From sequence record OL856099: 64,000 nt of DNA; one strand, 5' to 3'. The DNA comes from Shigella phage CWP003. The notes beneath the pieces were generated by a model that worked only from the letters and a program-made list of their open reading frames with translations, did not search any database and was not told the origin of the DNA. The translations under genes and the position numbers were made by a program. Below, one piece after another: positions 28,304 to 57,695 of the stretch. Every line of letters begins with the position of its first letter. Position 1 is the stretch's first letter.

Positions 28304-29164
28304 TTAAAACTCTTCTGCGTCGGTCGGAGTTTCATTGACAGGACCAGCGGCACCACTTGCTTCTTCCTGCTTGCTGCGGTCAATGTTAACGTTGCCGCCA
28401 ACCACGTCGTTGTGGAATGCTTTGGCGACTTCGTACAGGCCTTTGTCCTGCACCAGACCTTCCAGCTCAAACTTCAGGACGGACCAGGTGTTGCCGTCTT
28501 TGGACTGAGACGCAGTACCCATGCGAACGATGTTCATGAAGGTCGGCGGCGTTTTCAGGCCCTGCGGAGTCTGAACTTTCTTCTGCTGCAGAGCGGTCAT
28601 CAGCATGCGAGACGGCTTGATCATGGAAGAAGTCAGAGACAGCATTGCACTACCAAATTCACCAGTTTCTTCGTTCAACAGAATCACGAAGTGGTTACGT
28701 GTATCTGCGTAGTAAGGTGATTTCTTCTCGTGCACCTTGCCGTTTTCGTCTGGCACAAACACCTTACCGTTGATCTCAACAGCGCGGCCTGCCGCGACTT
28801 CTGCATCAACGTGCTCTTTGGTGAATTCACCTTTAAAGCCTTTATCGTCGGACTCGCGACCGCCCCAAAGGATGAAGGTGCGTTTGAATGCGCAAGGGAT
28901 GATCTGCACGCCCTTCTTGCCGTCATACAATTCACCAGTAACGGTGTTGTACAGCATACCAGCTTTTGCGCCAGGAACGTGTTTTGGATCATCTTCGTCG
29001 ACCATCGGAGACATCTTTTGCAGTACGACGATAAAAGGAATGGCATAAGCGTCGGCATCGGCACCTTCAAAACCAGCGCCAAAATCGGTCATATCGACAA
29101 AATCAGCCATAGCGGACATCTGGGTGTTTTTTGCTGCAACTTCGGTAGTTTCTTTCTTAGACAT
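28304..29164 (-). CDS. single-stranded DNA-binding protein-like
   Basis: acidic C-terminal tail ending TDAEEF (acidic tail with terminal Phe as in E. coli SSB and T7 gp2.5); in replication operon. Confidence 0.45.
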   Translation of the reverse strand: MSKKETTEVAAKNTQMSAMADFVDMTDFGAGFEGADADAYAIPFIVVLQKMSPMVDEDDPKHVPGAKAGMLYNTVTGELYDGKKGVQIIPCAFKRTFILWGGRESDDKGFKGEFTKEHVDAEVAAGRAVEINGKVFVPDENGKVHEKKSPYYADTRNHFVILLNEETGEFGSAMLSLTSSMIKPSRMLMTALQQKKVQTPQGLKTPPTFMNIVRMGTASQSKDGNTWSVLKFELEGLVQDKGLYEVAKAFHNDVVGGNVNIDRSKQEEASGAAGPVNETPTDAEEF

Positions 29165-29223: not shown

Positions 29224-29781
29224 TTACTTTTTGCTTTTAGGCAAGGTTATTTTAGCTTCTTTATACTCAAAAACGCTAATATCTTCACTAACTGGATTAC
29301 CCGCTTCCAGCTGTTCTTTAACAAATGACTTCAGTGTAGCAGAATGAACGCCTTGTTTCAACGTGGCTTCAACACCGTCTTCACGCAGCGCGGCAACAAT
29401 CTCTTGCGCTTGCTCGATTTCTTCGCGACCGAACTCAGCCGTGACGCTGGACTTGATCAAGCCGCCGTAACCGTTGTTGACGAGCCAATCGAATACCTTC
29501 AATTCATTTTCTTTCTTGATTGAAGCATTTACTTTTGACTCGACCTTGATTTTGGTCTTGTCTTCAAGCTTGATTTCGGACACGCCAAGCTCATCCATGA
29601 CGCCAGGAAGCAGAACAGTTTTGATTTCACTGATGCGCTGCTTTTGCATATCAGCTTCATCTTCAAGCTCTGTCAAAGCTTCTTGGCGTTCTGCCAATTC
29701 CGATACTAAGCGCGCAAGGCGCTCTTGAATGCTCTCAGGAGCGACCTGCGGCAAATCATCTTCCCAATTAATATTGCTCAT
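29224..29781 (-). CDS. hypothetical protein (replication module)
   Basis: AGAAGGTAA RBS; coiled-coil-like N-terminus. Confidence 0.45.
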   Translation of the reverse strand: MSNINWEDDLPQVAPESIQERLARLVSELAERQEALTELEDEADMQKQRISEIKTVLLPGVMDELGVSEIKLEDKTKIKVESKVNASIKKENELKVFDWLVNNGYGGLIKSSVTAEFGREEIEQAQEIVAALREDGVEATLKQGVHSATLKSFVKEQLEAGNPVSEDISVFEYKEAKITLPKSKK

Positions 29782-34942: not shown

Positions 34943-35484
34943 TATTTACTCCAGATGTCATATACGCCAATTTGTTGGCAGACTTTGTGCAGTAATATTA
35001 CGTCGTCTAATGCACGGTGTTTCTGTTCATATTTTCCGAAATATAATTCATACAGCTCTTGAAGCTTAACTCTTCGGCCAAAAATAGGCAAGGTTTGCTC
35101 GACTGTACAAATGTTTATTTCTGGAAAATTAACATCACCAAGTGTAAGACCTTCGCGCTGTAGTGCATAATCAAGAATGTTCTTATCGAACGCATGGTTG
35201 TGCGCGATAGTTGCATCAGTCTTCTTGAAGATTTCTTTTAGCTGCGGAACGAAATGGATGAATGGTGGATTGCACTCAAGGTCTTCATTTGTTAATCCGG
35301 TAATCTTTGTGATGATTTCTTCAATCACAATTTCAGGATTAATTATGAACTCGAAAGTTTCAAGAATCTCTTTTCCATCCGTCAACAGGCCTGCAAATTC
35401 AATAGGGCGCGGCTGCATCCCAAGCGGCGCTTTCGGGTGCACGGTTAATCCGGTTGTTTCGAAGTCATAAGGGAGAAATAACAC
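34942..35484 (-). CDS. DnaQ-like 3'-5' exonuclease (DEDDh)
   Basis: GTG start after GGAGG; Exo I motif LPYDFETTGL, Exo III-like HNHAFD. Confidence 0.65.
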   Translation of the reverse strand: MLFLPYDFETTGLTVHPKAPLGMQPRPIEFAGLLTDGKEILETFEFIINPEIVIEEIITKITGLTNEDLECNPPFIHFVPQLKEIFKKTDATIAHNHAFDKNILDYALQREGLTLGDVNFPEINICTVEQTLPIFGRRVKLQELYELYFGKYEQKHRALDDVILLHKVCQQIGVYDIWSK

Positions 35485-35538
35485 ATTAGCCTCCTACAAA
35501 AAGGCCGCCCATTAGGACGGCCACAGATTCACGATTCG

Positions 35539-36090
35539 TTATACAGTGTACGGAGTACCGTCTTGATTCAACCGCACGATGAACTTAAGGTCGACACCAA
35601 TGATTTCACGCGTATCAAAGATCACATAGTTGTAACGACGCTGACCAGCAATGTTTGGGTTGGTGTGAGAGTCGGTCACAACTTCCTGCGCAACCTGAAT
35701 GCCTTCTTCTTTAAAGAACTTGCGCCATTCAGCAAGTTCAGCGGCAGTCACGTGCATACCAAGATGGCTAACCTGATTGTCGTGCGCATCGATGTATTCG
35801 ATGTTTTCGTGAATCCAGTTGCAACCTTTTGTATAGTCAAGAATTTCAAGCTCAAGAGGCTTACCAGCTCCGCCATCGGTGCCGTTGCCAGCCTGATAGT
35901 TGAAGCGCAAGTCAGCTTCGTTGGTGCAATCGCCGCGCTGACCCTTAAAGACATCAGCTTCAAATACGCGACCAGTAGCAACAACGTGATCATGGAACCA
36001 TTCTGTCAGGCCGATTTTAGCCAGGAAATTCTGTGCGCGCTGAGCACCTGGAATTGACAGGGCGATTTGTTCAATTTTAAAATGTGGCAT
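35539..36090 (-). CDS. hypothetical protein, possibly VOC/glyoxalase-like
   Basis: AAGGAAA RBS; weak resemblance only. Confidence 0.3.
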   Translation of the reverse strand: MPHFKIEQIALSIPGAQRAQNFLAKIGLTEWFHDHVVATGRVFEADVFKGQRGDCTNEADLRFNYQAGNGTDGGAGKPLELEILDYTKGCNWIHENIEYIDAHDNQVSHLGMHVTAAELAEWRKFFKEEGIQVAQEVVTDSHTNPNIAGQRRYNYVIFDTREIIGVDLKFIVRLNQDGTPYTV

Positions 36091-36180
36091 TTTGTTTCCT
36101 TAATTAAATATTATTGATTAATTACTGTGTTGTCTTCGTCCTGTTTTTCAGGAGCAGCGACAACTTCAAATGTTCTTGAT

Positions 36181-36864
36181 TTATTTACCAAATGGAATAT
36201 CAGTACCAGACATAAAGCGCCATGCGCCCGTAATTAAGATATGGCGAATGAAGTCAGCAATTACTTGCGGCTCAGTCTCCAATCCATTCATCAGCGCCTT
36301 TTTCTGGTATTCAGCAGCATACTCAGGAGTCCAGCCGCGAGTCGCGCAAACAGCATCTTCAATCTGTTTGGACATGCCAGTACCACGTAGCTTGTTAGGA
36401 CTAATAGAGAATACCGTGATCCCGTATTTAGGCGTAAGCTCGTGAGCCATCTGCTTGCTAATCATGAGCGCAGCAGCCTTGGAAGCATTATAACACAAGC
36501 TGGACGTCATAGGAATATGCGCAGCGTTGGAAACGATGTTGATCACAAAACCTTTGTTGTCAATAAGACTTTTCAGCGCGGCCTGAGTCGTGTTGACGAA
36601 AGAGAAGGCGTTGGTGTGCATAACGCGATTGAACTCTTCGTAGTTAACATCTTCGAACCAGTTGTTGGAGTTGACGCCAGCGCAGTTGATCAAGCCTTCT
36701 ACGTCGTATTGAGAGAGAAGCTCTTTCATCTGTTTCGCGTTACGGATGTCATAGCCGTTCTCCAAATCAATACCGACAACTTCATGACCGTAAGCGCCAA
36801 GGGTGTCAAAAATGGATTTACCAAGACCGGAATTGCAGCCAGTTACAACAATTACTTTTTTCAT
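36181..36864 (-). CDS. short-chain dehydrogenase/reductase (SDR)
   Basis: N-terminal VVTGCNSGLGKS (TGxxxGxG) and catalytic YNASKAA (YxxxK). Confidence 0.7.
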   Translation of the reverse strand: MKKVIVVTGCNSGLGKSIFDTLGAYGHEVVGIDLENGYDIRNAKQMKELLSQYDVEGLINCAGVNSNNWFEDVNYEEFNRVMHTNAFSFVNTTQAALKSLIDNKGFVINIVSNAAHIPMTSSLCYNASKAAALMISKQMAHELTPKYGITVFSISPNKLRGTGMSKQIEDAVCATRGWTPEYAAEYQKKALMNGLETEPQVIADFIRHILITGAWRFMSGTDIPFGK

Positions 36865-36929
36865 TTATTTATCCTTTTTGGACTTCGTTTCGATGAGATA
36901 AATATAACTCATCGAAACGCACAAGTAAA

Positions 36930-37802
36930 CTATTTATTGAAATTAATATTATGGGTGTTGACAAGACGTTCACACATGGCGCTGTAAACACCATCATCGT
37001 GTATTGAGTCTTCGTGCTTCAGGCCGCTGATTGCGAAGCGTGTAAGCTTGACAATCTTAAGCTCGAACAGATGCCACATGTGGTAGTCTTCCGGCGTTTT
37101 CAACGTCACGCCATTAGGGAAAAGCACCTGCATAACCTGACCTACCATCACAGCGTTATCGCCATAGACCGCGTTGCGCTCACGGAAGGTTGCTGCCATC
37201 GCATCAAGAATATCGGCGGCAGTTGCCGGAGATTGTTCAACTTCCACAGCCTTAGTCTCTTCTTGCCCTGTTGCACTTGGATCAATTGCTAATTGTTGCA
37301 CCACTTCACCTGCCTTGCAAAGATTAAATGTAAAAGCGATTTTATTTTGAGCAACGGAATTATAATACAATGCTTCATCTTGCATCCGCGCGAGTACGTC
37401 TTGTCGGTCGTCGAATACATTGATGATTCGATAATCGCCGTGCCGCAATGCGTGCGACAGCCATGCAGATTTCATAATAGTTGATGGACGTTTGTCGCCA
37501 TAGTCTCTCATCTTGATTGTAAATTCATCAAAAGGGAAAACATTGTCCAGACGTTCAAAAGTCACTTGTCTGTATTTTTCTGGCCTTGCAGTCCAATATT
37601 CAACCGCCTCACCGCGAAGAGAGGCCGACTCTACTGCTGATGCAATGTGAGGATAGAACTGATCATAACCAATACCGCTGTGATAATCATCATAGTCTGA
37701 CAACGGACCTGCCACCTTGATGCGGTCTAAGCGCCAACGGTCATCAAACAGCGTTCCGTCAAGGTCGAATACGTTTAAGATTTCGCTGTTTTTAATGCTC
37801 AT
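36930..37802 (-). CDS. HAD-superfamily phosphatase-domain protein
   Basis: HAD motif I VFDLDGTLFDD near N-terminus; C-terminal half unassigned. Confidence 0.55.
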   Translation of the reverse strand: MSIKNSEILNVFDLDGTLFDDRWRLDRIKVAGPLSDYDDYHSGIGYDQFYPHIASAVESASLRGEAVEYWTARPEKYRQVTFERLDNVFPFDEFTIKMRDYGDKRPSTIMKSAWLSHALRHGDYRIINVFDDRQDVLARMQDEALYYNSVAQNKIAFTFNLCKAGEVVQQLAIDPSATGQEETKAVEVEQSPATAADILDAMAATFRERNAVYGDNAVMVGQVMQVLFPNGVTLKTPEDYHMWHLFELKIVKLTRFAISGLKHEDSIHDDGVYSAMCERLVNTHNINFNK

Positions 37803-38602
37803 CCTTTTGATACTCCATCTTTAGCAACTGGATTGTTGGTGATTGGCATCGCACTCCAAAACTGGATGCGCAACTCTTCTTGCTGTGCCGTGGTATCCAT
37901 CCAATCACGATACCAAGGGCAATGGGCTTTACCGTGACGAGGAAATGCGCACTTACCCATACCAATGCATTGCGGCTGCAGTAATGGATTCGCCCAAGGG
38001 TGCACCTTGAGGACTTCCGCAACCATTGCGCGGAATACTTCTTGATACTCTCCTTGCGTGCGCGTGCACAAGCGGTTTGACGCCATCTGCTGCAGCGTGC
38101 GCAAGTTGAACTTTGCCATGATATGCGTTTGCATATTAGAAGGCAACACGGCACGTGCATCTTGAATCTCTGCGCCAGCCGCGCGAAGCTCTTGATACAA
38201 AGCGTCGATAGTCGCCATCGCATCATCCCACTTCTCTGCCAGTTCAGCTGCCTTCTCGTCATGGCGAGTCCATCCCTTTGGATCATCCTCTGGGTAAGTG
38301 AATTTAGCAGGACGAATCGCATCAAATGCAGACGACTCCTGAGCGCGGCTGGTGCGTTCTTGATATGCGCCTGTGCGTGTGCGTACCATCTGATGGGTCA
38401 TGTTCTTTGATACAGCTGTGATATCAAAGATATAGTCCACAAAGTCAAAAGGCGACTTGATTGTATCAAGCATGTAGCGCCAATGCTCTTGCTTCTCTGA
38501 TTCCGTCATCTCAGAGACAGGCTTACCAGTCATGCGCGTGTTCTTTGTTTCCAGCAAAAGGTCAAGTGCATCTTGGGTGTATCGAATTAATTCAACTTTC
38601 AT
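37799..38602 (-). CDS. thyX: ThyX-like (flavin-dependent thymidylate synthase family) protein with variant motif
   Basis: SPFDFVDYIFDI...HQMVRTRTGAYQERTSR parallels the ThyX SPFEH...HQLVRHR...S.RY region, with Thr in place of the motif His. Confidence 0.5.
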   Translation of the reverse strand: MKVELIRYTQDALDLLLETKNTRMTGKPVSEMTESEKQEHWRYMLDTIKSPFDFVDYIFDITAVSKNMTHQMVRTRTGAYQERTSRAQESSAFDAIRPAKFTYPEDDPKGWTRHDEKAAELAEKWDDAMATIDALYQELRAAGAEIQDARAVLPSNMQTHIMAKFNLRTLQQMASNRLCTRTQGEYQEVFRAMVAEVLKVHPWANPLLQPQCIGMGKCAFPRHGKAHCPWYRDWMDTTAQQEELRIQFWSAMPITNNPVAKDGVSKG

Positions 38603-38615
38603 TTTAATTGTCCTA

Positions 38616-39062
38616 TTAACGGTAATTCACTAGTTGCTGATCACCAGAGAAGGTGCAATGATAAACGAATTGTGCGTTATAAAGCAACTGAAAACTTTTC
38701 TTTGGTTCATTATTAGAACTCATTGATGTAAAGATTTCTGCACCAGAACGGTTTTCACCAATCAGATTGATAAAGCCGCCAGTTGAACGAGGTTGAACGA
38801 AAGTGAAACGTTGCATCCACGGAGTCCGGTTGACACCTTTTCCGGTGAATCCTTGAATCTGAATATTCAGACCTTCTTGCTCATTCACACCGATGTAAGT
38901 GGTAATCTTCGCACCAGTCGTTGCTGCGGTCTTACCGTCCATCGCTTCGCAATCGTAAACAGCGATTGAATCGGAAGTACGGATGGCGGCTTCAGTCGCT
39001 TCCATATACATGGTGCCGAGAATAGCAGTTGCGGCAAGCGCGATTCCAGTGATTCGTTTCAT
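38616..39062 (-). CDS. secreted small protein with signal peptide
   Basis: AGAGGA RBS; MKRITGIALAATAILGTMYMEATEA signal-like N-terminus; two Cys. Confidence 0.5.
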   Translation of the reverse strand: MKRITGIALAATAILGTMYMEATEAAIRTSDSIAVYDCEAMDGKTAATTGAKITTYIGVNEQEGLNIQIQGFTGKGVNRTPWMQRFTFVQPRSTGGFINLIGENRSGAEIFTSMSSNNEPKKSFQLLYNAQFVYHCTFSGDQQLVNYR

Positions 39063-39127
39063 TTTCGTTTCCTCTATGAGTTCTGCTTCAATGATTAAAG
39101 TATACGCCCATTGAAGCAGAAAGCAAA

Positions 39128-40123
39128 TTATTTATTAGCAATATAAGCAAATTTTTGATAGTTATTTGCTTTGATGAGTTTTTCGACTTCAACAAGGTCA
39201 TGAGCGACGTCATCAAGCAAGATATTGCGCCAGGTCGCGAATCGACCGACACTAAACACGTTTAAATCCATAGTCAGCTGCAGGAGTAGGGCGTGTCGCA
39301 AGTCTTTCGGAATGTCGACAATCTTGCCATATTTCTGGTCGACCTTTTCAACTTCTTCAAGAGCAATGTCACTCCATGAAAGGCCAAAGGCCGTCAACAC
39401 TTCGTCGACTTCTGCGCGCAGCTTCATGTCACGGTAACGAGTGATGCCGCCTGCGGCTTCAACTGCAGCTTCACTCACGCTGACCAAAGGAATTGTTTCA
39501 ATGATAAGCGTGTCACCAGTAATTGATGCGCGGTAAGTTCTGACGGAGTAGTCAGGGAAGTAAATTGTCTGATACAAATCACACTTACGTTTAATCTTAA
39601 AGCGGTAAACGCGAATGTTTGCTTTATCAAATGAGAAATCAAGCTTTTGATCAATTCCAGCAAGCTTCATCATGACTGGCAGCGGCGACGTGTTGATGAT
39701 TGGCGTCTCGCTATAGCCGCAAAGAGTATCAACCGGAGTATTAAAGAATATGCGGTCACCCAGTTTGTCGACAAGCTGATCATAAAAGTCATCAGGCGCA
39801 ATATAACGCGTTGCAGTCTTAAGCTTCATGATTGAACGGCTGCCAAATTGATTGGTGACCTTCATGGAATACATATTGGCAAGGTTGATTGGGCAATGGT
39901 CGTGATAGTAGTTGCCGCGAAAATACACAGCCTTGTCAACTGTCACGGCCTTAAAAGGGATTCCGGTAATACGGCTTACTTCTTCGCCGCGAAAGCGTAG
40001 CAGCGCCTTGTGCTGTTGCGCTCGTTCCCCTGCTTCGTACACAATAGAGTTCGGGAAGTGACACGCGGTGATAAGTCCTGCCAATCCGCCGCCGATAATC
40101 ATTACAGGTTGTTTCATGTTCAT
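39128..40123 (-). CDS. FAD/NAD(P)-binding oxidoreductase
   Basis: N-terminal Rossmann motif VMIIGGGLAGL; AAAGGA RBS. Confidence 0.6.
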   Translation of the reverse strand: MNMKQPVMIIGGGLAGLITACHFPNSIVYEAGERAQQHKALLRFRGEEVSRITGIPFKAVTVDKAVYFRGNYYHDHCPINLANMYSMKVTNQFGSRSIMKLKTATRYIAPDDFYDQLVDKLGDRIFFNTPVDTLCGYSETPIINTSPLPVMMKLAGIDQKLDFSFDKANIRVYRFKIKRKCDLYQTIYFPDYSVRTYRASITGDTLIIETIPLVSVSEAAVEAAGGITRYRDMKLRAEVDEVLTAFGLSWSDIALEEVEKVDQKYGKIVDIPKDLRHALLLQLTMDLNVFSVGRFATWRNILLDDVAHDLVEVEKLIKANNYQKFAYIANK

Positions 40124-40255
40124 TTGTCCTTTGTGGGTGATATGAGAAGTATAATAGCTAAATTATTTTACAGCAACAAGTCATTTTATTTAGTACAGAT
40201 GAAAAAAGACCCACAACAAGTGTGGGTCAATTACCGCTGCATAACCGTCCTAAGG

Positions 40256-41095
40256 TTATTCCGCTTGATCACCGTCTTCGGCATCTTCGTTGGGTTCAAC
40301 ATCGACAAACTCGATGTGGCCCATCTCTTCCAGCTTGCTCAGGTAGGAGCGAACGGAAGCGCCAAACAGTTGATCTTTAACTTTTTCGCCCAGCTCATCG
40401 ATAGACTGCGCCACGCCAACTTCGCCTTCTTTGATCGCCGCCAGAACGCGTCCACGGGTGGAATGCTCTTGCGGCTGGCTCAGGCCATTGCCAGTGTAGA
40501 TGAAGTGAGTAGCTTTTGCACGACGTTGACCGTTTGCCTTTTTAGCGGCCTTACGTTCTGCGATGGCTTTGCGACGTTCTTCAGCTTCTTTCTTACGCTG
40601 TTCTTTCTGTTGTTCTGCAGCTTCTTTCGCCGCAATCTTAGCAGCTTCACGCTCTGCCTTGCGTTTCGCTTTAGCTTCTTCTTTGGCCTTCTCTTTTTCG
40701 GCCTTCGCTGCAGCACGGGCTTGATCACGCTCTGCTTTCTTAGCAGCAGCTTGTTCAGCTTTCAGGCGCTTGGCTTCTTCTTTAGCCTTTGCCTTTTCGA
40801 TTTCTTTTGCTGCTTTAGCGGCTTCACGCTCTGCTTTCTTAGCAGCAGCCTTTTCTGCACGCTCTTTAGCTTTCTTAGCTGCTTCTTCAGCACGCTTCTG
40901 AGCCTTCTCATCAGCAGCCTGCTTGCGTTTCAGGGCAGCTTCTTCACGCTTGGCTTGTTTTTCCTGCTCACGCTTCTGGCGTTTTTCTTCGGCTTCTTTC
41001 TTTTTAGCCAGACGTTTTTCTTCAGCCACGCGACGGCGTTCTGCTGCAGCTGCTTGCTTTTCTTCTTTAGATAATACTTTGATTGCTTCGGCCAT
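40256..41095 (-). CDS. K/A/E-rich low-complexity helical protein with small C-terminal globular domain
   Basis: about 200 aa of AKKAEREAAKAAKE-type repeats; RBS TAAGGAC before ATG at 41095 (table ORF starts at GTG 41101). Confidence 0.5.
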   Translation of the reverse strand: MAEAIKVLSKEEKQAAAAERRRVAEEKRLAKKKEAEEKRQKREQEKQAKREEAALKRKQAADEKAQKRAEEAAKKAKERAEKAAAKKAEREAAKAAKEIEKAKAKEEAKRLKAEQAAAKKAERDQARAAAKAEKEKAKEEAKAKRKAEREAAKIAAKEAAEQQKEQRKKEAEERRKAIAERKAAKKANGQRRAKATHFIYTGNGLSQPQEHSTRGRVLAAIKEGEVGVAQSIDELGEKVKDQLFGASVRSYLSKLEEMGHIEFVDVEPNEDAEDGDQAE

Positions 41096-41254
41096 ATTCA
41101 CAGTCCTTAAATAAATTAGTTTATTTTATATTCCCCGTTTGGGATAACTTAATTATGCCTTCAGTCGCCGCCAGTAGCAACTAAAAACTCTGGCGGCAAT
41201 GCCACTTTAATTAAACTGATTTTCAGTTTTATTTTTCGTAAATTTACGTCAACA

Positions 41255-53992: not shown

Positions 53993-54222
53993 CCGATAAA
54001 CAATACGCAGTCGGGCAGCGTGACATCGAGCAACTCGACGAGGGCGGCTATTATACGCGCCACATCTATGCCATGACGCATGAAGGACTTTACAGCAAGT
54101 CTGACATCGCTGCTGAACTGGCCCATCGTGACTTGCAAATTGACATGTTGCGTCTTGCTCTTGAGAAGCAAACACAAATCGCCATCGAAATTTTGGAGAA
54201 GTTAAATGATACAACGTTATGA
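53989..54222 (+). CDS. hypothetical small protein
   Basis: ATGA overlap. Confidence 0.4.
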   Translation: MTDKQYAVGQRDIEQLDEGGYYTRHIYAMTHEGLYSKSDIAAELAHRDLQIDMLRLALEKQTQIAIEILEKLNDTTL

Positions 54223-54781
54223 TGTTGATTATTGCACGCAGCACGCTTGCACATGCGAAGTTGTAAAGGATGATGAAGGCGGCTATGTTGAATATGAGGA
54301 CTATGCCGCGTTGGAAGCGAAATACAGTGAAGTAAAAAGTCGCGTCGAGCTGGAAGCGAAACATAGTGAAGTTAAAACGTATGCAGTAAACTGCAACGAC
54401 GCGTGGCTTAATACAAAGGGTGATGACACCTCTGGTTCATATGTCAAGTTTTCTGATTATGCCGCGCTGGAAGCGAAATATAGTGAAGCGCAACGCGAGT
54501 TGGTTGCATTACGCTCACAGGTCCGTGATGCATCGGCGCTCGTTAAGCAGTTGCACGATGTTGTTGCTACTATAGTCGTGGATGTTGATGCGCCGAAGGA
54601 AGAAGCGTGGACCGTGTGGCACGGTGGAGAGAATCCGGTGCCTGGGGAAATGGTTGAATACAAGCTGCGCAATGGAGAAGATAAAGTGCTGTCAAGACTC
54701 TCTGACCATCTTCACTGGGGTCATATAGGCGCGTTAAAGGGCAGCGACATCATCGCTTATCGGGTCGTTAAGGAGGGGTGA
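54206..54781 (+). CDS. hypothetical protein with internal DYAALEAKYSE repeat and C-terminal GGENPVPG domain
   Basis: GGAGAAG RBS; internal duplication at nt and protein level; C-terminal paralogy to 52813 gene. Confidence 0.45.
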   Translation: MIQRYDVDYCTQHACTCEVVKDDEGGYVEYEDYAALEAKYSEVKSRVELEAKHSEVKTYAVNCNDAWLNTKGDDTSGSYVKFSDYAALEAKYSEAQRELVALRSQVRDASALVKQLHDVVATIVVDVDAPKEEAWTVWHGGENPVPGEMVEYKLRNGEDKVLSRLSDHLHWGHIGALKGSDIIAYRVVKEG

Positions 54782-55937: not shown

Positions 55938-56103
55938 GCTTCAACCAGCCAGTAGCGGCTAAGTCATTGATTTGCATAACAAGCGGCGAAAGGGATGGAC
56001 TTCTTTTATACGTATCAAACAGTACACCACGCACCACGGTCCGATATTCATTCAGCACTATGATTTATGTACGTTTACAGCCAATTTGAACATCAATCTG
56101 CAC

Positions 56104-56132
56104 TTGAATATAATGTTCAATCATTATATAAT
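56104..56132 (+). promoter_or_regulatory. sigma70-type promoter for gene 56167
   Basis: TTGAAT-17-TATAAT. Confidence 0.45.
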
Positions 56133-56144
56133 TCACACTATTAA

Positions 56145-56168
56145 TTTGCACTATGGGATTTGCACTAT
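56145..56168 (+). promoter_or_regulatory. two tandem TTTGCACTAT motifs between -10 element and start codon (operator-like)
   Basis: copies at 56145-56154 and 56159-56168, the second overlapping ATG 56167. Confidence 0.45.
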
Positions 56169-56640
56169 GAGTCAAGATTATGTAGCAATGCCTGAAGACT
56201 TTGAAGACCCGCGATTTGCAGAGCATAATCAGGCATTATTCGATGAGTTCATCGACCTTGTTATTCAGGGCCATGACATGCGCGCAGCTTTTGCACTAGT
56301 ATTTGGCATGGAGGTTGCGACCGATAACTACACTGGCCAGCGAATCCTGTGCACTCAGCGCAATCCGTACTACAAGATGCGCTACAAAAAGCGTATGGAA
56401 GAGATGCCATTGAAGGAATTGTGGAGCGTAAAGAGTTCCATTCACAATTTAGTGAAGCTTGTGCGTGATCCAGAAGTCGCAGCATCAGCCAAGCTTAATG
56501 CCATTCGTGAACTGAATATCATCTACGGCATTACGATGATTGATGAAAACGGCAATAGTAAAATGGGCCGTTCCATGGATGATTTCTACAAGGATTTTGG
56601 AGAGGCGGCCAAAGAGGGTGAGCAATTCTCCCGCCACTAG
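56167..56640 (+). CDS. hypothetical protein (157 aa)
   Basis: ATG at 56167 within table ORF 55972-56640; GGGA 8 nt upstream; promoter at 56104. Confidence 0.45.
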   Translation: MSQDYVAMPEDFEDPRFAEHNQALFDEFIDLVIQGHDMRAAFALVFGMEVATDNYTGQRILCTQRNPYYKMRYKKRMEEMPLKELWSVKSSIHNLVKLVRDPEVAASAKLNAIRELNIIYGITMIDENGNSKMGRSMDDFYKDFGEAAKEGEQFSRH

Positions 56641-57068: not shown

Positions 57069-57695
57069 TTAGATAATCTGGAAGGTGTAGGACTTGTTGC
57101 CGAACTCGAAGTTCAAGCGTCCCGCTTCTTTAAGCTTCATGCGGAAGCGAATGTGCTTGCTATCCGGTAAGCCCAGCGCGGCGAACGCTACGCGGACTGA
57201 TTTGAACTCGCCTACACCCTCGACCATAACGGCGTTACGGGTGAGACGCTTTTGCGCCACTTCCTTGTTATCCCAACTTTTTGCAATACCTTCGCTATTC
57301 GAACGGCGATGGGAAGGAGTTCCATTTTGCACTACGCAACTTGCACTATCGTTTAGGCCGCTTTTAACGAAGGCTTCATACTCTTCGTCGGTCATCGCGT
57401 CGAGTTCTTCCTGGGTCGGCTCGGCCTTTTTGACGACCGCACGCGCCTTATGCGTTTTTACATCGCTGGACACTTCCTCGCGCGGCTTCGCGTCTGGGAT
57501 GGGCGATTCGTTGGACGGCTCATCGAGCGCGTTTAAGGACTCGATTAACGCGATTACGCGAGTCTCGGCGGTCCGGCGGTCCGCAAACTTCTTAATCGGT
57601 TTTGAGCCGGAATTTGCATTATAGAATGCAACGAGGTCGGCGGTCTTAGTTGCGATAACGTCGCCGCTAGTAGAAAAGCGATTTAAGCTAACCAT
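57069..57695 (-). CDS. hypothetical protein (island gene)
   Basis: AGGAG RBS 8 nt before ATG; CpG-rich codon usage distinct from rest of window. Confidence 0.5.
   Translation of the reverse strand: MVSLNRFSTSGDVIATKTADLVAFYNANSGSKPIKKFADRRTAETRVIALIESLNALDEPSNESPIPDAKPREEVSSDVKTHKARAVVKKAEPTQEELDAMTDEEYEAFVKSGLNDSASCVVQNGTPSHRRSNSEGIAKSWDNKEVAQKRLTRNAVMVEGVGEFKSVRVAFAALGLPDSKHIRFRMKLKEAGRLNFEFGNKSYTFQII

Follow-up and report, generated by a model that had tools for sequence, protein, structure and literature searches.

The hypermodification pathways of phages M6, ViI, PaMx11, phiW-14 and SP10 comprise a dUMP hydroxymethylase, a 5-hmdU DNA kinase, an aGPT-Pplase amino-acid:DNA transferase and tailoring enzymes, and in PaMx11 the FAD oxidoreductase gp47 acts on hypermodified thymine in DNA (PMC8989533). 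Rhizobium phage RL38J1 possesses a true UDP-galactopyranose mutase (UGM) (PMC13326640). A 2025 preprint reported that, in the DNA of the Pbunavirus phages F8 and 14-1, thymidine at TG sites is decorated with a sugar-alcohol or pentose-like group; the derivatives, of 362 and 390 Da, were described as a ‘sugar alcohol’ and a ‘circularized aldopentose’ derivative, the modification affects about one quarter of T, in TG context, and no biosynthetic genes were named (PMC12191111). Wifcevirus phages, for their part, resist restriction without a known mechanism (PMC11990801).

Here we analysed a stretch of 64,000 nucleotides (the window) from Shigella phage CWP003 (OL856099), a Wifcevirus. An earlier note, made from the sequence alone, had proposed that six genes in this window might form a nucleotide- or DNA-base-modification pathway. 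Five of these six genes constitute an ancient conserved cassette just upstream of the exonuclease and Pol III alpha genes, and this cassette is the best candidate for the genes behind the sugar-like thymine modification of the related Pseudomonas phages.

Organization of the six-gene block

The six ORFs are consecutive on the minus strand, at positions 35539-40123, in agreement with the coordinates and flanks given previously: a Lys/Ala/Glu-rich protein and a Dda-like helicase are encoded upstream, and an exonuclease and Pol III alpha downstream. The flavoprotein gene (39128-40123, minus strand, 331 aa) is the first of the conserved cassette. It is followed on the same strand by a signal-peptide-like ORF (38616-39062, 148 aa), a ThyX-family gene (37799-38602, 267 aa), a HAD/DUF6378-like phosphatase gene (36930-37802, 290 aa), a gene for a short-chain dehydrogenase/reductase (SDR; 36181-36864, 227 aa) and a VOC-superfamily gene (35539-36090, 183 aa). 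All six start with ATG and have a GGA-type ribosome-binding site; packing is tight, with intergenic gaps of -4 to 90 nt, and the GC content is 0.458, as compared with 0.463 for the window. The HAD start overlaps the ThyX stop as ATGA, an overlap from which we read these two genes as translationally coupled. The replication operon holding the cassette also includes ligase and MazG-like pyrophosphatase genes.

Two strong minus-strand terminator-like hairpins, overlooked in the earlier note, enclose exactly the six genes. One (40208..40228, minus strand; 8-bp stem and T-run) lies between the Lys/Ala/Glu-rich gene and the cassette, and the other (35503..35522, minus strand; 8-bp stem with seven GC pairs and T-run) separates the VOC gene from the exonuclease/polymerase genes. 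Terminators are annotated in phage Mansfield at positions matching both.

Conservation and co-distribution

The flavoprotein is present in 361 of 50,697 phage genome records, and a DUF6378-like domain in 363 of them. The genus counts of the ThyX subclade (at least 38% identity) match those of the flavoprotein, with 292 in Pseudomonas, 27 in Escherichia, nine in Serratia and six in Xanthomonas; other ThyX clades, from Gordonia, Mycobacterium and Sulfolobus viruses, have no flavoprotein partner. The core trio of flavoprotein, ThyX subclade and HAD/DUF6378 protein is thus co-distributed almost one-to-one across phages. Much of this co-distribution lies within one vertically related supergroup, in which the trio travels with the Pol III alpha/exonuclease module.

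In two podoviruses of about 40 kb, Cronobacter phage Ss1 and Vibrio phage PVA7, the flavoprotein gene directly adjoins the ThyX gene, and in the ~206-kb Rhizobium phage RHph_TM2_3B the trio lies within 7 kb, in a stretch without a match to the Pol III alpha or exonuclease of the window. A flavoprotein search of the genomes of 185,579 species returned seven loci, all on MAG contigs, and the family is essentially confined to phages. These loci were retrieved by the flavoprotein alone, and in all seven the same strand carries a gene of the ThyX subclade 0-3.5 kb further downstream; at one of them (L018), all five genes occur in order, with exonuclease and Pol III alpha genes next. Very distant phages retain the arrangement flavoprotein-ThyX-HAD(-SDR-VOC), at 29-40% protein identity.

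The 148-aa ORF does not share this conservation. Among the loci compared, it is present only in the two Wifcevirus loci (L001 and L002) and is absent from those of Hera, F8, Ss1, Ralstonia and Rhizobium; in Pluto, the flavoprotein and ThyX genes have no intervening ORF. Its N-terminus (MKRITGIALAATAILGTMYMEATEAA) resembles a signal peptide on inspection, in line with its previous description as a secreted protein, and Pfam and PHROG scans gave no family matches. This ORF is probably a Wifcevirus-specific insert rather than a pathway member.

Assignment of the cassette proteins

Domain assignment of each protein left the earlier gene inventory essentially unchanged. The flavoprotein belongs to phrog_4828 (E=2.7e-150), a PHROG of unknown function; it has no Pfam match even at E<=10, including GLF and Amino_oxidase, and no NCBIfam match. 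In the family alignment, the GxGxxG motif and a C-terminal GRFATWRNILLDD motif are invariant, as are many Arg and Lys residues, and there is a single FAD-type Rossmann motif. An AF2 model (pLDDT 86.8) has UGM as its best structural match, with a nearly equal score for protoporphyrinogen oxidase (PPOX), and predicts a UDP-galactopyranose-mutase/protoporphyrinogen-oxidase/amine-oxidase fold. No other product of the ~45 non-structural ORFs scanned has a sugar-nucleotide enzyme as its closest structural match. The published annotation of Mansfield, based on HHpred, names this protein UGM. However, the flavoprotein has no sequence homology to the Glf/UGM and PPOX class beyond the Rossmann motif, and is shorter by 35-140 residues: hhalign against E. 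coli Glf aligned only this motif (20 residues, 4.7% probability), and a profile search of the PDB recovered no UGM. With no Pfam GLF match and no profile homology outside GxGxxG, membership in Glf by sequence was rejected.

The ThyX-like protein matches Thy1 (PF02511; E=2.9e-30) over profile positions 2-191 of 191, scoring below the TIGR02170 equivalog cut-off (81.8 versus 87.9 bits). It shares with Thermotoga maritima ThyX (TM0449) the full-length Thy1 domain and, in pairwise and multiple alignments, the equivalents of Q75, R78, R80, E86, R90, R147 and R174, among which Q75, E86, R90, R147 and R174 bind dUMP in the T. maritima enzyme. It differs from TM0449 in the signature RHR(X)7S, in place of which it has RTR(X)7T. 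Across the subclade, R(T/N)R replaces RHR, F takes the place of H53, T that of S88, and A, V or I that of Y91 (A in the window protein; T. maritima numbering), and a Cys-rich C-terminal extension is common to the proteins of the window, F8, Hera and Pluto. Unlike TM0449 and its relatives, this subclade always co-occurs with the UGM-like flavoprotein. Judged by these features, we class the protein as a divergent ThyX of a distinct subclade.

The HAD protein, previously described as a phosphatase with an extra C-terminal domain, matches HAD_PNKP (E=5.4e-8), and residues D13, D15, T71, K111, D131 and D132, which make up HAD motifs I-IV, are invariant in 40 homologues. Its AF2 model (pLDDT 88.8; helices at 195-280) comprises a phosphatase domain, a linker and a C-terminal four-helix DUF6378-like bundle; homologues match DUF6378 weakly. 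The top Foldseek match is the T4 Pnkp phosphatase (5uj0), and the fold is also near that of class B/C nucleotidases. Neither Pfam nor the AF2 model revealed a P-loop 5'-kinase domain, and the polynucleotide kinase/phosphatase of database annotation was rejected on this ground.

The SDR matches adh_short (E=1e-31), whereas its NCBIfam matches are all generic and under their cut-offs. The motifs VTGCNSGLG (TGxxxGxG), NCAG and S...YNASK (YxxxK) are intact in its translation and identify it as a predicted classical short-chain dehydrogenase/reductase; Asp33 suggests NAD(H) as cofactor. The protein is conserved in Hera, Pluto and L018. The VOC assignment is less direct: the window protein matches Glyoxalase_4 only weakly and under threshold (E=0.09) and profile searching recovered no PDB entry, but among 33 close homologues 11 do match this domain (best E=6.7e-6). 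The alignment is highly conserved, with Q8, E80, E82, H109, H113, H142 and D167 invariant, and the 690 homologues lie mostly on phage contigs of 60-73 kb.

A candidate pathway for thymidine hypermodification

Both F8 and 14-1 carry the flavoprotein/ThyX/HAD-DUF6378 trio. Their flavoprotein and ThyX are about 41% and 49% identical to those of the window, a HAD/DUF6378 homologue is also present, and the trio is placed as in the window, with the Dda helicase gene on one side and the exonuclease/Pol III alpha genes on the other; SDR, VOC and the 148-aa ORF are all missing from these loci. The most likely reading, to which we give about even odds, is that the cassette specifies a new thymidine-hypermodification pathway, yielding a non-canonical C5-substituted T or dU in virion DNA that would block restriction.

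The ThyX and UGM folds are both capable of covalent flavin-N5 iminium chemistry. In the proposed pathway, the ThyX-like enzyme and the UGM-like flavoprotein would jointly equip a uracil or thymine nucleotide with a carbon or sugar substituent at C5. The HAD/DUF6378 protein would dephosphorylate an intermediate or a sugar-phosphate substituent, or clear the competing canonical nucleotide, and the SDR and VOC proteins, only in the lineages that have them, would tailor the sugar through reduction of a carbonyl and isomerisation/epimerisation of the enediol type. The Wifcevirus product would be the counterpart of the sugar-alcohol- or pentose-bearing thymidine of F8 and 14-1. We infer every one of these chemical steps, as well as the causal role of the cassette in the modification or the restriction phenotype; if this is true, the cassette may explain the restriction-enzyme resistance of Wifcevirus. 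Published restriction-site counts for Wifcevirus were reproduced with standard recognition sequences. F8 DNA is cut by EcoRI (PMC12191111), whereas Wifcevirus is EcoRI-resistant in vivo (PMC11990801), and the TG motif alone can therefore not account for the Wifcevirus phenotype.

The earlier idea of a base-modification pathway thus gains circumstantial support from the conserved cassette, the co-distributed trio, the modified relatives and the restriction resistance of Wifcevirus, and loses one of its members, the 148-aa ORF. Other observations run counter to it. The SDR and VOC genes are missing from the sole phages with a measured modification. In these phages the modification is partial and TG-specific, which suggests an enzyme that works on DNA after its replication, while the ThyX-like and HAD proteins resemble enzymes of mononucleotides and neither a DNA-binding nor a base-flipping domain was recognized. 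The adduct masses differ between F8 and 14-1 despite flavoproteins that are 97% identical. Moreover, the ThyX-like protein could, by its sequence, be an ordinary thymidylate synthase, as many phages have.

A more specific version of the pathway, which we regard as speculative and rather unlikely in this exact form, is that the UGM-like flavoprotein and the ThyX subclade carry out a new flavin-N5-iminium reaction linking deoxyuridylate, at its C5, with C1 of a sugar or of an aldose phosphate, that is, ThyX chemistry with a sugar replacing formaldehyde. Reduction would give 5-(1-deoxyalditol-1-yl)-dU, and ring closure C-glycosyl-dU. The masses calculated for the former with a pentose (dU + pentitol - H2O, 362.3 Da) and for the latter with a hexose (dU + hexose - H2O, 390.3 Da) equal the two reported for F8 and 14-1 (PMC12191111), and are equally consistent with an O-linked tetritol or pentose on 5-hmdU; seen from thymidine, the products would be ‘tetrose sugar-alcohol’ and ‘circularized aldopentose’ derivatives. 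The HAD protein would strip the sugar phosphate, SDR and VOC would tailor the chain, and linkage to a dedicated Pol III alpha/exonuclease pair would reflect incorporation of the unusual nucleotide. This linkage is absent at the Rhizobium phage locus examined and otherwise constant.

The main competing explanation, a real possibility though we lean against it, is an ordinary module for dTMP supply or salvage. ThyX would then be a normal enzyme that raises dTTP levels to sustain very rapid replication, and the flavoprotein would serve the ThyX subclade as an obligate partner in redox or flavin handling. The HAD protein would act as a nucleotidase or as a 3'-phosphatase on DNA ends, the SDR and VOC genes would be auxiliary metabolic genes, and any modification of the DNA would be due to other, unrecognised genes. 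Since the ThyX-like protein retains its dUMP-binding residues, in addition to a full Thy1 domain, its predicted activity may simply be dTMP synthesis. Consistent with such a module are the HAD protein's closest relationships, to the T4 Pnkp 3'-phosphatase and to class B/C nucleotidases, the MazG-like pyrophosphatase and ligase genes in the same operon, and the reportedly extremely fast replication of Wifcevirus (PMC11990801). A strict flavoprotein-ThyX partnership would explain the one-to-one co-distribution too; yet the ThyX enzymes characterised so far draw on NAD(P)H directly and are not known to require a partner protein, and the flavoprotein, with a substrate domain like that of UGM/PPOX and one FAD-type Rossmann motif, is unlike a flavin reductase. 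A salvage module also leaves the conserved SDR and VOC genes unexplained, and deprives the sugar-thymidine of Pbunavirus and the restriction resistance of Wifcevirus of candidate genes, no other enzyme-like ORF having been found.

It is very improbable that the genes share no common pathway and are independent accessories in a permissive slot of the replication operon. The slot does take insertions, in that Wifcevirus has the 148-aa ORF there, Mansfield and Bas99 an additional small ORF, and F8 five small ORFs, but gene order is held at 29-40% identity and in seven of seven independently found loci, ThyX and HAD appear translationally coupled, and the phyletic distributions are near-identical. 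Very improbable, too, is a role in sugar-nucleotide or host-envelope metabolism, in which the flavoprotein would be a genuine pyranose-furanose mutase (converting, for example, UDP-Galp to UDP-Galf) that remodels host sugar-nucleotide pools or surface glycans with the SDR, VOC and phosphatase, ThyX being linked by position only: UGM is the best structural match and the name given in Mansfield, glf and a galactofuranosyltransferase gene both lie in the E. coli O16 gene cluster, Wifcevirus isolates need the O16 antigen (PMC11990801) and RL38J1 provides a phage precedent, but the flavoprotein is unrelated to Glf in sequence past GxGxxG, no glycosyltransferase was detected in the scanned window ORFs, and the family is kept, always beside ThyX, in phages whose hosts (Pseudomonas, Xanthomonas, Vibrio, Rhizobium and others) have unrelated glycans.

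Comparison with known base-modification systems

If the cassette does specify thymidine hypermodification, its enzymes would differ from those of described systems. Pfam and PHROG scans of ~45 non-structural window ORFs, which very divergent hypermodification enzymes could escape, gave no match to a 5-hmdU kinase, aGPT-Pplase, TET/JBP or ThyA-type dUMP hydroxymethylase, and no methyltransferase was found among these ORFs. Nor was a DNA glycosyltransferase domain, as in the T4 glc-hmC, base J and RB69 ara-hoC systems, detected in them. In M6, ViI, PaMx11, phiW-14 and SP10, partial replacement of T by a C5-methyl-substituted derivative blocks restriction, and the genes responsible cluster with nucleotide-metabolism genes, as here. 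By contrast, the one-carbon enzyme of the window is of ThyX rather than ThyA type, the defining enzymes of those pathways were undetected, and the adduct reported in relatives of the window phage is a sugar or polyol rather than an amino acid or polyamine. A further likeness is to the clusters of RB69, DLP3 and RL38J1 for glycosylated 5-hydroxycytosine or Galf-type DNA glycosylation, in which a thymidylate-synthase-family enzyme with flavin chemistry and sugar-nucleotide enzymes lead to sugar-bearing pyrimidines (PMC13326640).

A delimited six-gene cassette in the replication region

Over positions 35000–41200 the window is 99.9% identical to Escherichia phage vB_EcoM_WFH (WFH) of the genus Wifcevirus, the ~28 sequenced members of which share 94–100% identity over this stretch; the genus is distantly related to the Pseudomonas Pbunavirus group (PMC11990801). 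Structural genes, endolysin, ligase, a MazG-like protein, a UvsW-type helicase, a DnaE-type Pol III alpha and an epsilon-like exonuclease are followed by the cluster, beyond which lie a Lys/Ala/Glu-rich protein, a Dda-like helicase and primases. The six minus-strand ORFs listed in the earlier note are all present where it placed them, and its observation holds overall. Each ORF begins with ATG behind a GGA-type ribosome-binding site, with intergenic gaps of -4 to 90 nt, and the ThyX and HAD genes overlap through ATGA, which suggests translational coupling. Strong terminator-like hairpins on the minus strand (40228–40208 and 35522–35503) exactly flank the six genes, and terminators are annotated at both corresponding places in phage Mansfield; the replication region therefore holds these six genes as a delimited cassette. 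With a GC content of 0.458, against 0.463 for the window, the cluster is not a recent import.

Two kinds of small ORF vary between relatives. A 148-aa ORF (38616–39062, minus strand), without family matches and found only in Wifcevirus among the loci compared, is treated as a lineage-specific insert; its N-terminus reads, by inspection, as a signal peptide, and this ORF, the ‘secreted protein’ of the earlier note, stands outside the conserved set. The Wifcevirus phages Mansfield (L001 7112–7327) and Bas99 (L002 39460–39630) have an additional ORF of 71 and 56 aa, respectively, between the VOC and SDR genes, which WFH lacks (window 36091–36180); the cassette thus tolerates small insertions. Directly upstream of the cassette, in the window (40256–41101, minus strand) and always in Hera, F8, 14-1 and Pluto, lies the gene for the Lys/Ala/Glu-rich protein (281 aa), which has a long low-complexity N-terminal part and a conserved C-terminal stretch of ~110 residues. 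The latter resembles a winged-helix domain by inspection and may bind DNA; the label ‘TolA’ in some records is a mis-annotation.

Proteins encoded by the cassette

The flavoprotein (39128–40123, minus strand, 331 aa) falls in PHROG 4828, annotated as ‘unknown function’. A word-indexed search puts its family at 1,954 proteins and an exhaustive one at 1,140 clusters (50% identity), all single-domain and about 300–330 aa long. In the alignment GxGxxG is invariant, as are many Arg/Lys positions, and there is a C-terminal GRFATWRNILLDD motif. AlphaFold models the protein with confidence (pLDDT 86.8, pTM 0.83). Single-sequence and profile searches of PDB sequences returned nothing significant, the profile search finding nothing beyond the Rossmann motif, which was also all that hhalign aligned between the family and E. 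coli Glf, a UDP-galactopyranose mutase (UGM). The protein is of the UGM/protoporphyrinogen oxidase/amine oxidase class, closest to UGM and not demonstrably a UGM; bona fide UGM membership, as annotated in Mansfield, is rejected. The earlier note described it as an FAD-binding oxidoreductase; no Pfam or NCBIfam family matches it, even at E ≤ 10.

The ThyX gene (37799–38602, minus strand, 267 aa) encodes a full Thy1 domain (E = 3e-30), as the earlier note had supposed, and scores 81.8 against the NCBIfam ThyX equivalog, just under the cut-off of 87.9. Relative to T. maritima ThyX the dUMP-contacting positions are retained, RHR becomes RTR, and H53, S88 and Y91 are replaced by Phe, Thr and Ala, respectively; every ThyX that accompanies the flavoprotein carries these same deviations. 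Myovirus members have an added Cys-rich C-terminal extension (LLQPxCxxxGxCAFPRxG...C.(W/F)YRxWMD; window 37799–38000, the C-terminal third of the gene), which is common to Hera, Pluto and F8, with ~37 extra residues inserted in F8, and is lacking in the podovirus and Rhizobium homologues. This extension may be a metal or redox site.

The next protein (36930–37802, minus strand, 290 aa) proved to be a HAD phosphatase with an extra C-terminal domain, in line with the earlier reading: all four catalytic HAD motifs are invariant, and a variable linker leads to a strongly conserved domain of ~100 residues with four predicted helices, homologues of which match DUF6378 weakly. The nearest solved fold for the HAD part is the 3'-phosphatase of T4 Pnkp; PDB sequence searches (single-sequence and profile) with the whole protein and with its C-terminal domain gave nothing significant. 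Since a kinase domain is absent, the database label ‘polynucleotide kinase’ is wrong and was rejected, and since hhalign found no relation between the DUF6378-like domain and the window's own MazG-like protein, we do not call this domain MazG-like. In Ralstonia phage PY059YO380 a deposited minus-strand ORF (L004 8380–9211), likely a mis-annotation, covers a plus-strand HAD domain detected by tblastn, which is followed by a separate 100-aa DUF6378-like ORF; the two domains can thus be separate proteins. In Cronobacter phage Ss1, ThyX is followed by a gene with DUF3310 at its end.

The remaining two genes encode a classical SDR (36181–36864, minus strand, 227 aa) with cofactor and catalytic motifs intact, confirming that assignment, and the best-conserved protein of the cassette (35539–36090, minus strand, 183 aa), which probably belongs to the VOC superfamily. 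The earlier note had called its VOC fold ‘possible’: 11 of 33 close homologues match Glyoxalase_4 (best E = 6.7e-6), whereas the query itself reaches just E = 0.09, and PDB sequence searches (single-sequence and profile) gave nothing significant.

Co-inheritance of the core trio

Luteibacter phage Pluto, Serratia phage Hera and a Bacilli-binned MAG contig carry flavoprotein, ThyX, HAD, SDR, VOC, exonuclease and Pol III alpha genes in the same order, with protein identities down to about 32–41%. Pbunavirus phages, some of the Pseudomonas phages most often used in therapy, have flavoprotein, ThyX and HAD/DUF6378 genes in the same slot, without SDR and VOC (F8, 14-1). Outside this myovirus supergroup the flavoprotein gene adjoins ThyX in ~40-kb podoviruses (Cronobacter Ss1, Vibrio PVA7), and the ~206-kb Rhizobium phage RHph_TM2_3B has all three genes inside 7 kb, in a region that gave no match to the window's Pol III alpha or exonuclease. 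These arrangements indicate that the cassette is ancient and its core trio co-inherited.

Across 50,697 phage genomes the flavoprotein occurs in 361 records and the DUF6378-like domain in 363; ThyX at ≥38% identity is found in the same taxa as the flavoprotein with identical per-genus counts, and ThyX proteins of other clades occur without either partner. A flavoprotein profile scan of one genome from each of 185,579 prokaryotic species yielded seven loci only, all on MAG contigs, and in 7/7 the ThyX subclade lies 0–3.5 kb downstream on the same strand. Co-inheritance, gene order and co-distribution are strong evidence that the flavoprotein is functionally coupled to this ThyX subclade, and good evidence that the HAD/DUF6378 protein is coupled to it as well. 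The conserved gene order also makes mere co-location of these genes very unlikely. A role for the cassette in host glycans or UDP-Galf, to which the UGM-like fold might point, is very unlikely too, considering the range of hosts across the family and its constant position next to ThyX.

Published DNA modification and restriction resistance

Digested virion DNA of F8 and 14-1 was recently shown to contain sugar-like thymidine derivatives of 362 and 390 Da that replace about a quarter of T, and enzymes with TG in their recognition sites are blocked (Yee et al., PMC12191111); that study names no biosynthetic genes, and we found no later paper naming any. In the WFH window, 26.6% of thymines stand in TG context. 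Wifcevirus phages resist most restriction systems tested, EcoP1_I being the exception (PMC11990801). The published site counts for Bas99 were reproduced exactly with AACN6GTGC, GAGN7GTCA, GAATTC, GATATC, CACAG and AGACC. The resisted EcoKI, EcoCFT_I and EcoCFT_II sites have TG on one strand, whereas EcoP1_I sites have none, a pattern that fits a TG-type modification. Sites for EcoRI and EcoRV are likewise free of TG, yet Bas99 tolerates 19 and 4 of them, respectively; plain transfer of the Pbunavirus motif to Wifcevirus is therefore rejected, and if base modification is responsible there, its context must be broader or different. Together, the published modification and the resistance of Wifcevirus make the modification idea more than speculation. 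Looked for as an indirect sign of a modified genome, a homologue of 14-1 gp88, the anti-END inhibitor of Pbunavirus, was not found; the protein is too small for its absence to inform.

F8 and 14-1, which carry different adducts, were compared gene by gene. Their cassette genes are 81–97% identical, and among the cassette neighbours ORF70 alone is strongly divergent (57%, against 91–99% for the genes beside it). This comparison identified no adduct determinant and did not link ORF70 to the adduct difference. The sequence of ORF70 (L006 2031–3227 in one Pbunavirus locus, L009 13997–15301 in another) suggests a coiled coil that bears a CxxCxGxG zinc-ribbon motif.

Other candidate genes

All window ORFs of at least 60 aa were compared with the complete 14-1 genome. 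Besides structural, lysis and replication genes, the two share the trio, the MazG-like protein, a Pam3 gp33/gp34-like pair and two unknowns. None of the ~45 non-structural ORFs scanned against Pfam and PHROG matched a P-loop 5-hmdU kinase, aGPT-Pplase, TET/JBP dioxygenase, ThyA-type hydroxymethylase, glycosyltransferase or methyltransferase. By its predicted structure, the flavoprotein is the sole scanned product with a sugar-nucleotide enzyme as closest match, and it occurs in a group whose relatives carry a sugar-like thymine adduct.

The Pam3 gp34-like and gp33-like pair (28304–29164 and 29224–29781, minus strand; PF23977, DUF7307) is conserved in 14-1, the Ralstonia podovirus and MAG locus L017, each time in the genomic neighbourhood of the flavoprotein, and its members are further candidates for an unrecognised DNA-directed activity. 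Proteins of phrog_4783 (55972–56640, plus strand) and phrog_4730 (57069–57695, minus strand), with gp76 and gp77 as 14-1 counterparts, are among the few other non-replication, non-structural genes in common. The first ~45 residues of a 191-aa ORF (54206–54781, plus strand) show a weak similarity to a Lar-like restriction-alleviation protein (phrog_3592, E = 5e-5), which could add to type I RM resistance irrespective of DNA modification.

Proposed chemistry and alternatives

At the level of predicted genes, a ThyX-type enzyme, a UGM-fold flavoprotein and a phosphatase constitute a conserved, co-transcribed and co-distributed set, joined in most lineages by the reductase and the VOC protein. ThyX transfers a methylene group from folate to C5 of dUMP via a flavin-N5 iminium, and UGM forms a flavin-N5–C1(sugar) iminium, a rare covalent-flavin chemistry common to both folds. 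In the explanation that we prefer, and rate at about even, the cassette makes a C5-substituted thymidine or deoxyuridine for virion DNA that blocks restriction: ThyX and the flavoprotein would build a C5 substituent bearing a sugar or polyol, the phosphatase would strip phosphate from an intermediate or clear a competing nucleotide, and the SDR and VOC proteins would tailor the sugar by reduction, isomerisation or epimerisation. By arithmetic, 5-hmdU with an O-linked tetritol (362.3) or pentose (390.3) fits the published masses, and dU with C5 bonded to C1 of a pentose that is then reduced (362.3), or of a hexose with ring closure (390.3), fits them equally well; this direct C5–C1 bond, which would be new enzymology, is unlikely.

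TG-specific, partial modification implies action on DNA, whereas ThyX and HAD look like mononucleotide enzymes with no evident DNA-recognition module, and this mismatch is the main difficulty. That the cassette is almost always linked to a dedicated pair of Pol III alpha and exonuclease genes may be a hint of synthesis before replication, followed by selective incorporation. The chief alternative, possible though doubtful, is that the module simply supplies dTMP, with the flavoprotein as an accessory to this ThyX subclade, and that other genes are responsible for the modification. The modification pathway proposed in the earlier note is partly supported, by evidence that is comparative and literature-based throughout.

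If the preferred explanation is right, phages hypermodify thymidine with an unrecognised enzyme set, a hypothesis directly testable with the Wifcevirus isolates Bas98–101 in the tractable BASEL E. coli K-12 system. A responsible cassette would provide a genetic marker in ~360 sequenced phages and >1,000 metagenomic protein clusters, account for host-range limits from modification-dependent END nucleases and offer new enzymes for C5-functionalised DNA. It would also define a new set of DNA hypermodification enzymes, combining two covalent-flavin folds and dispensing with the known kinase/transferase machinery.
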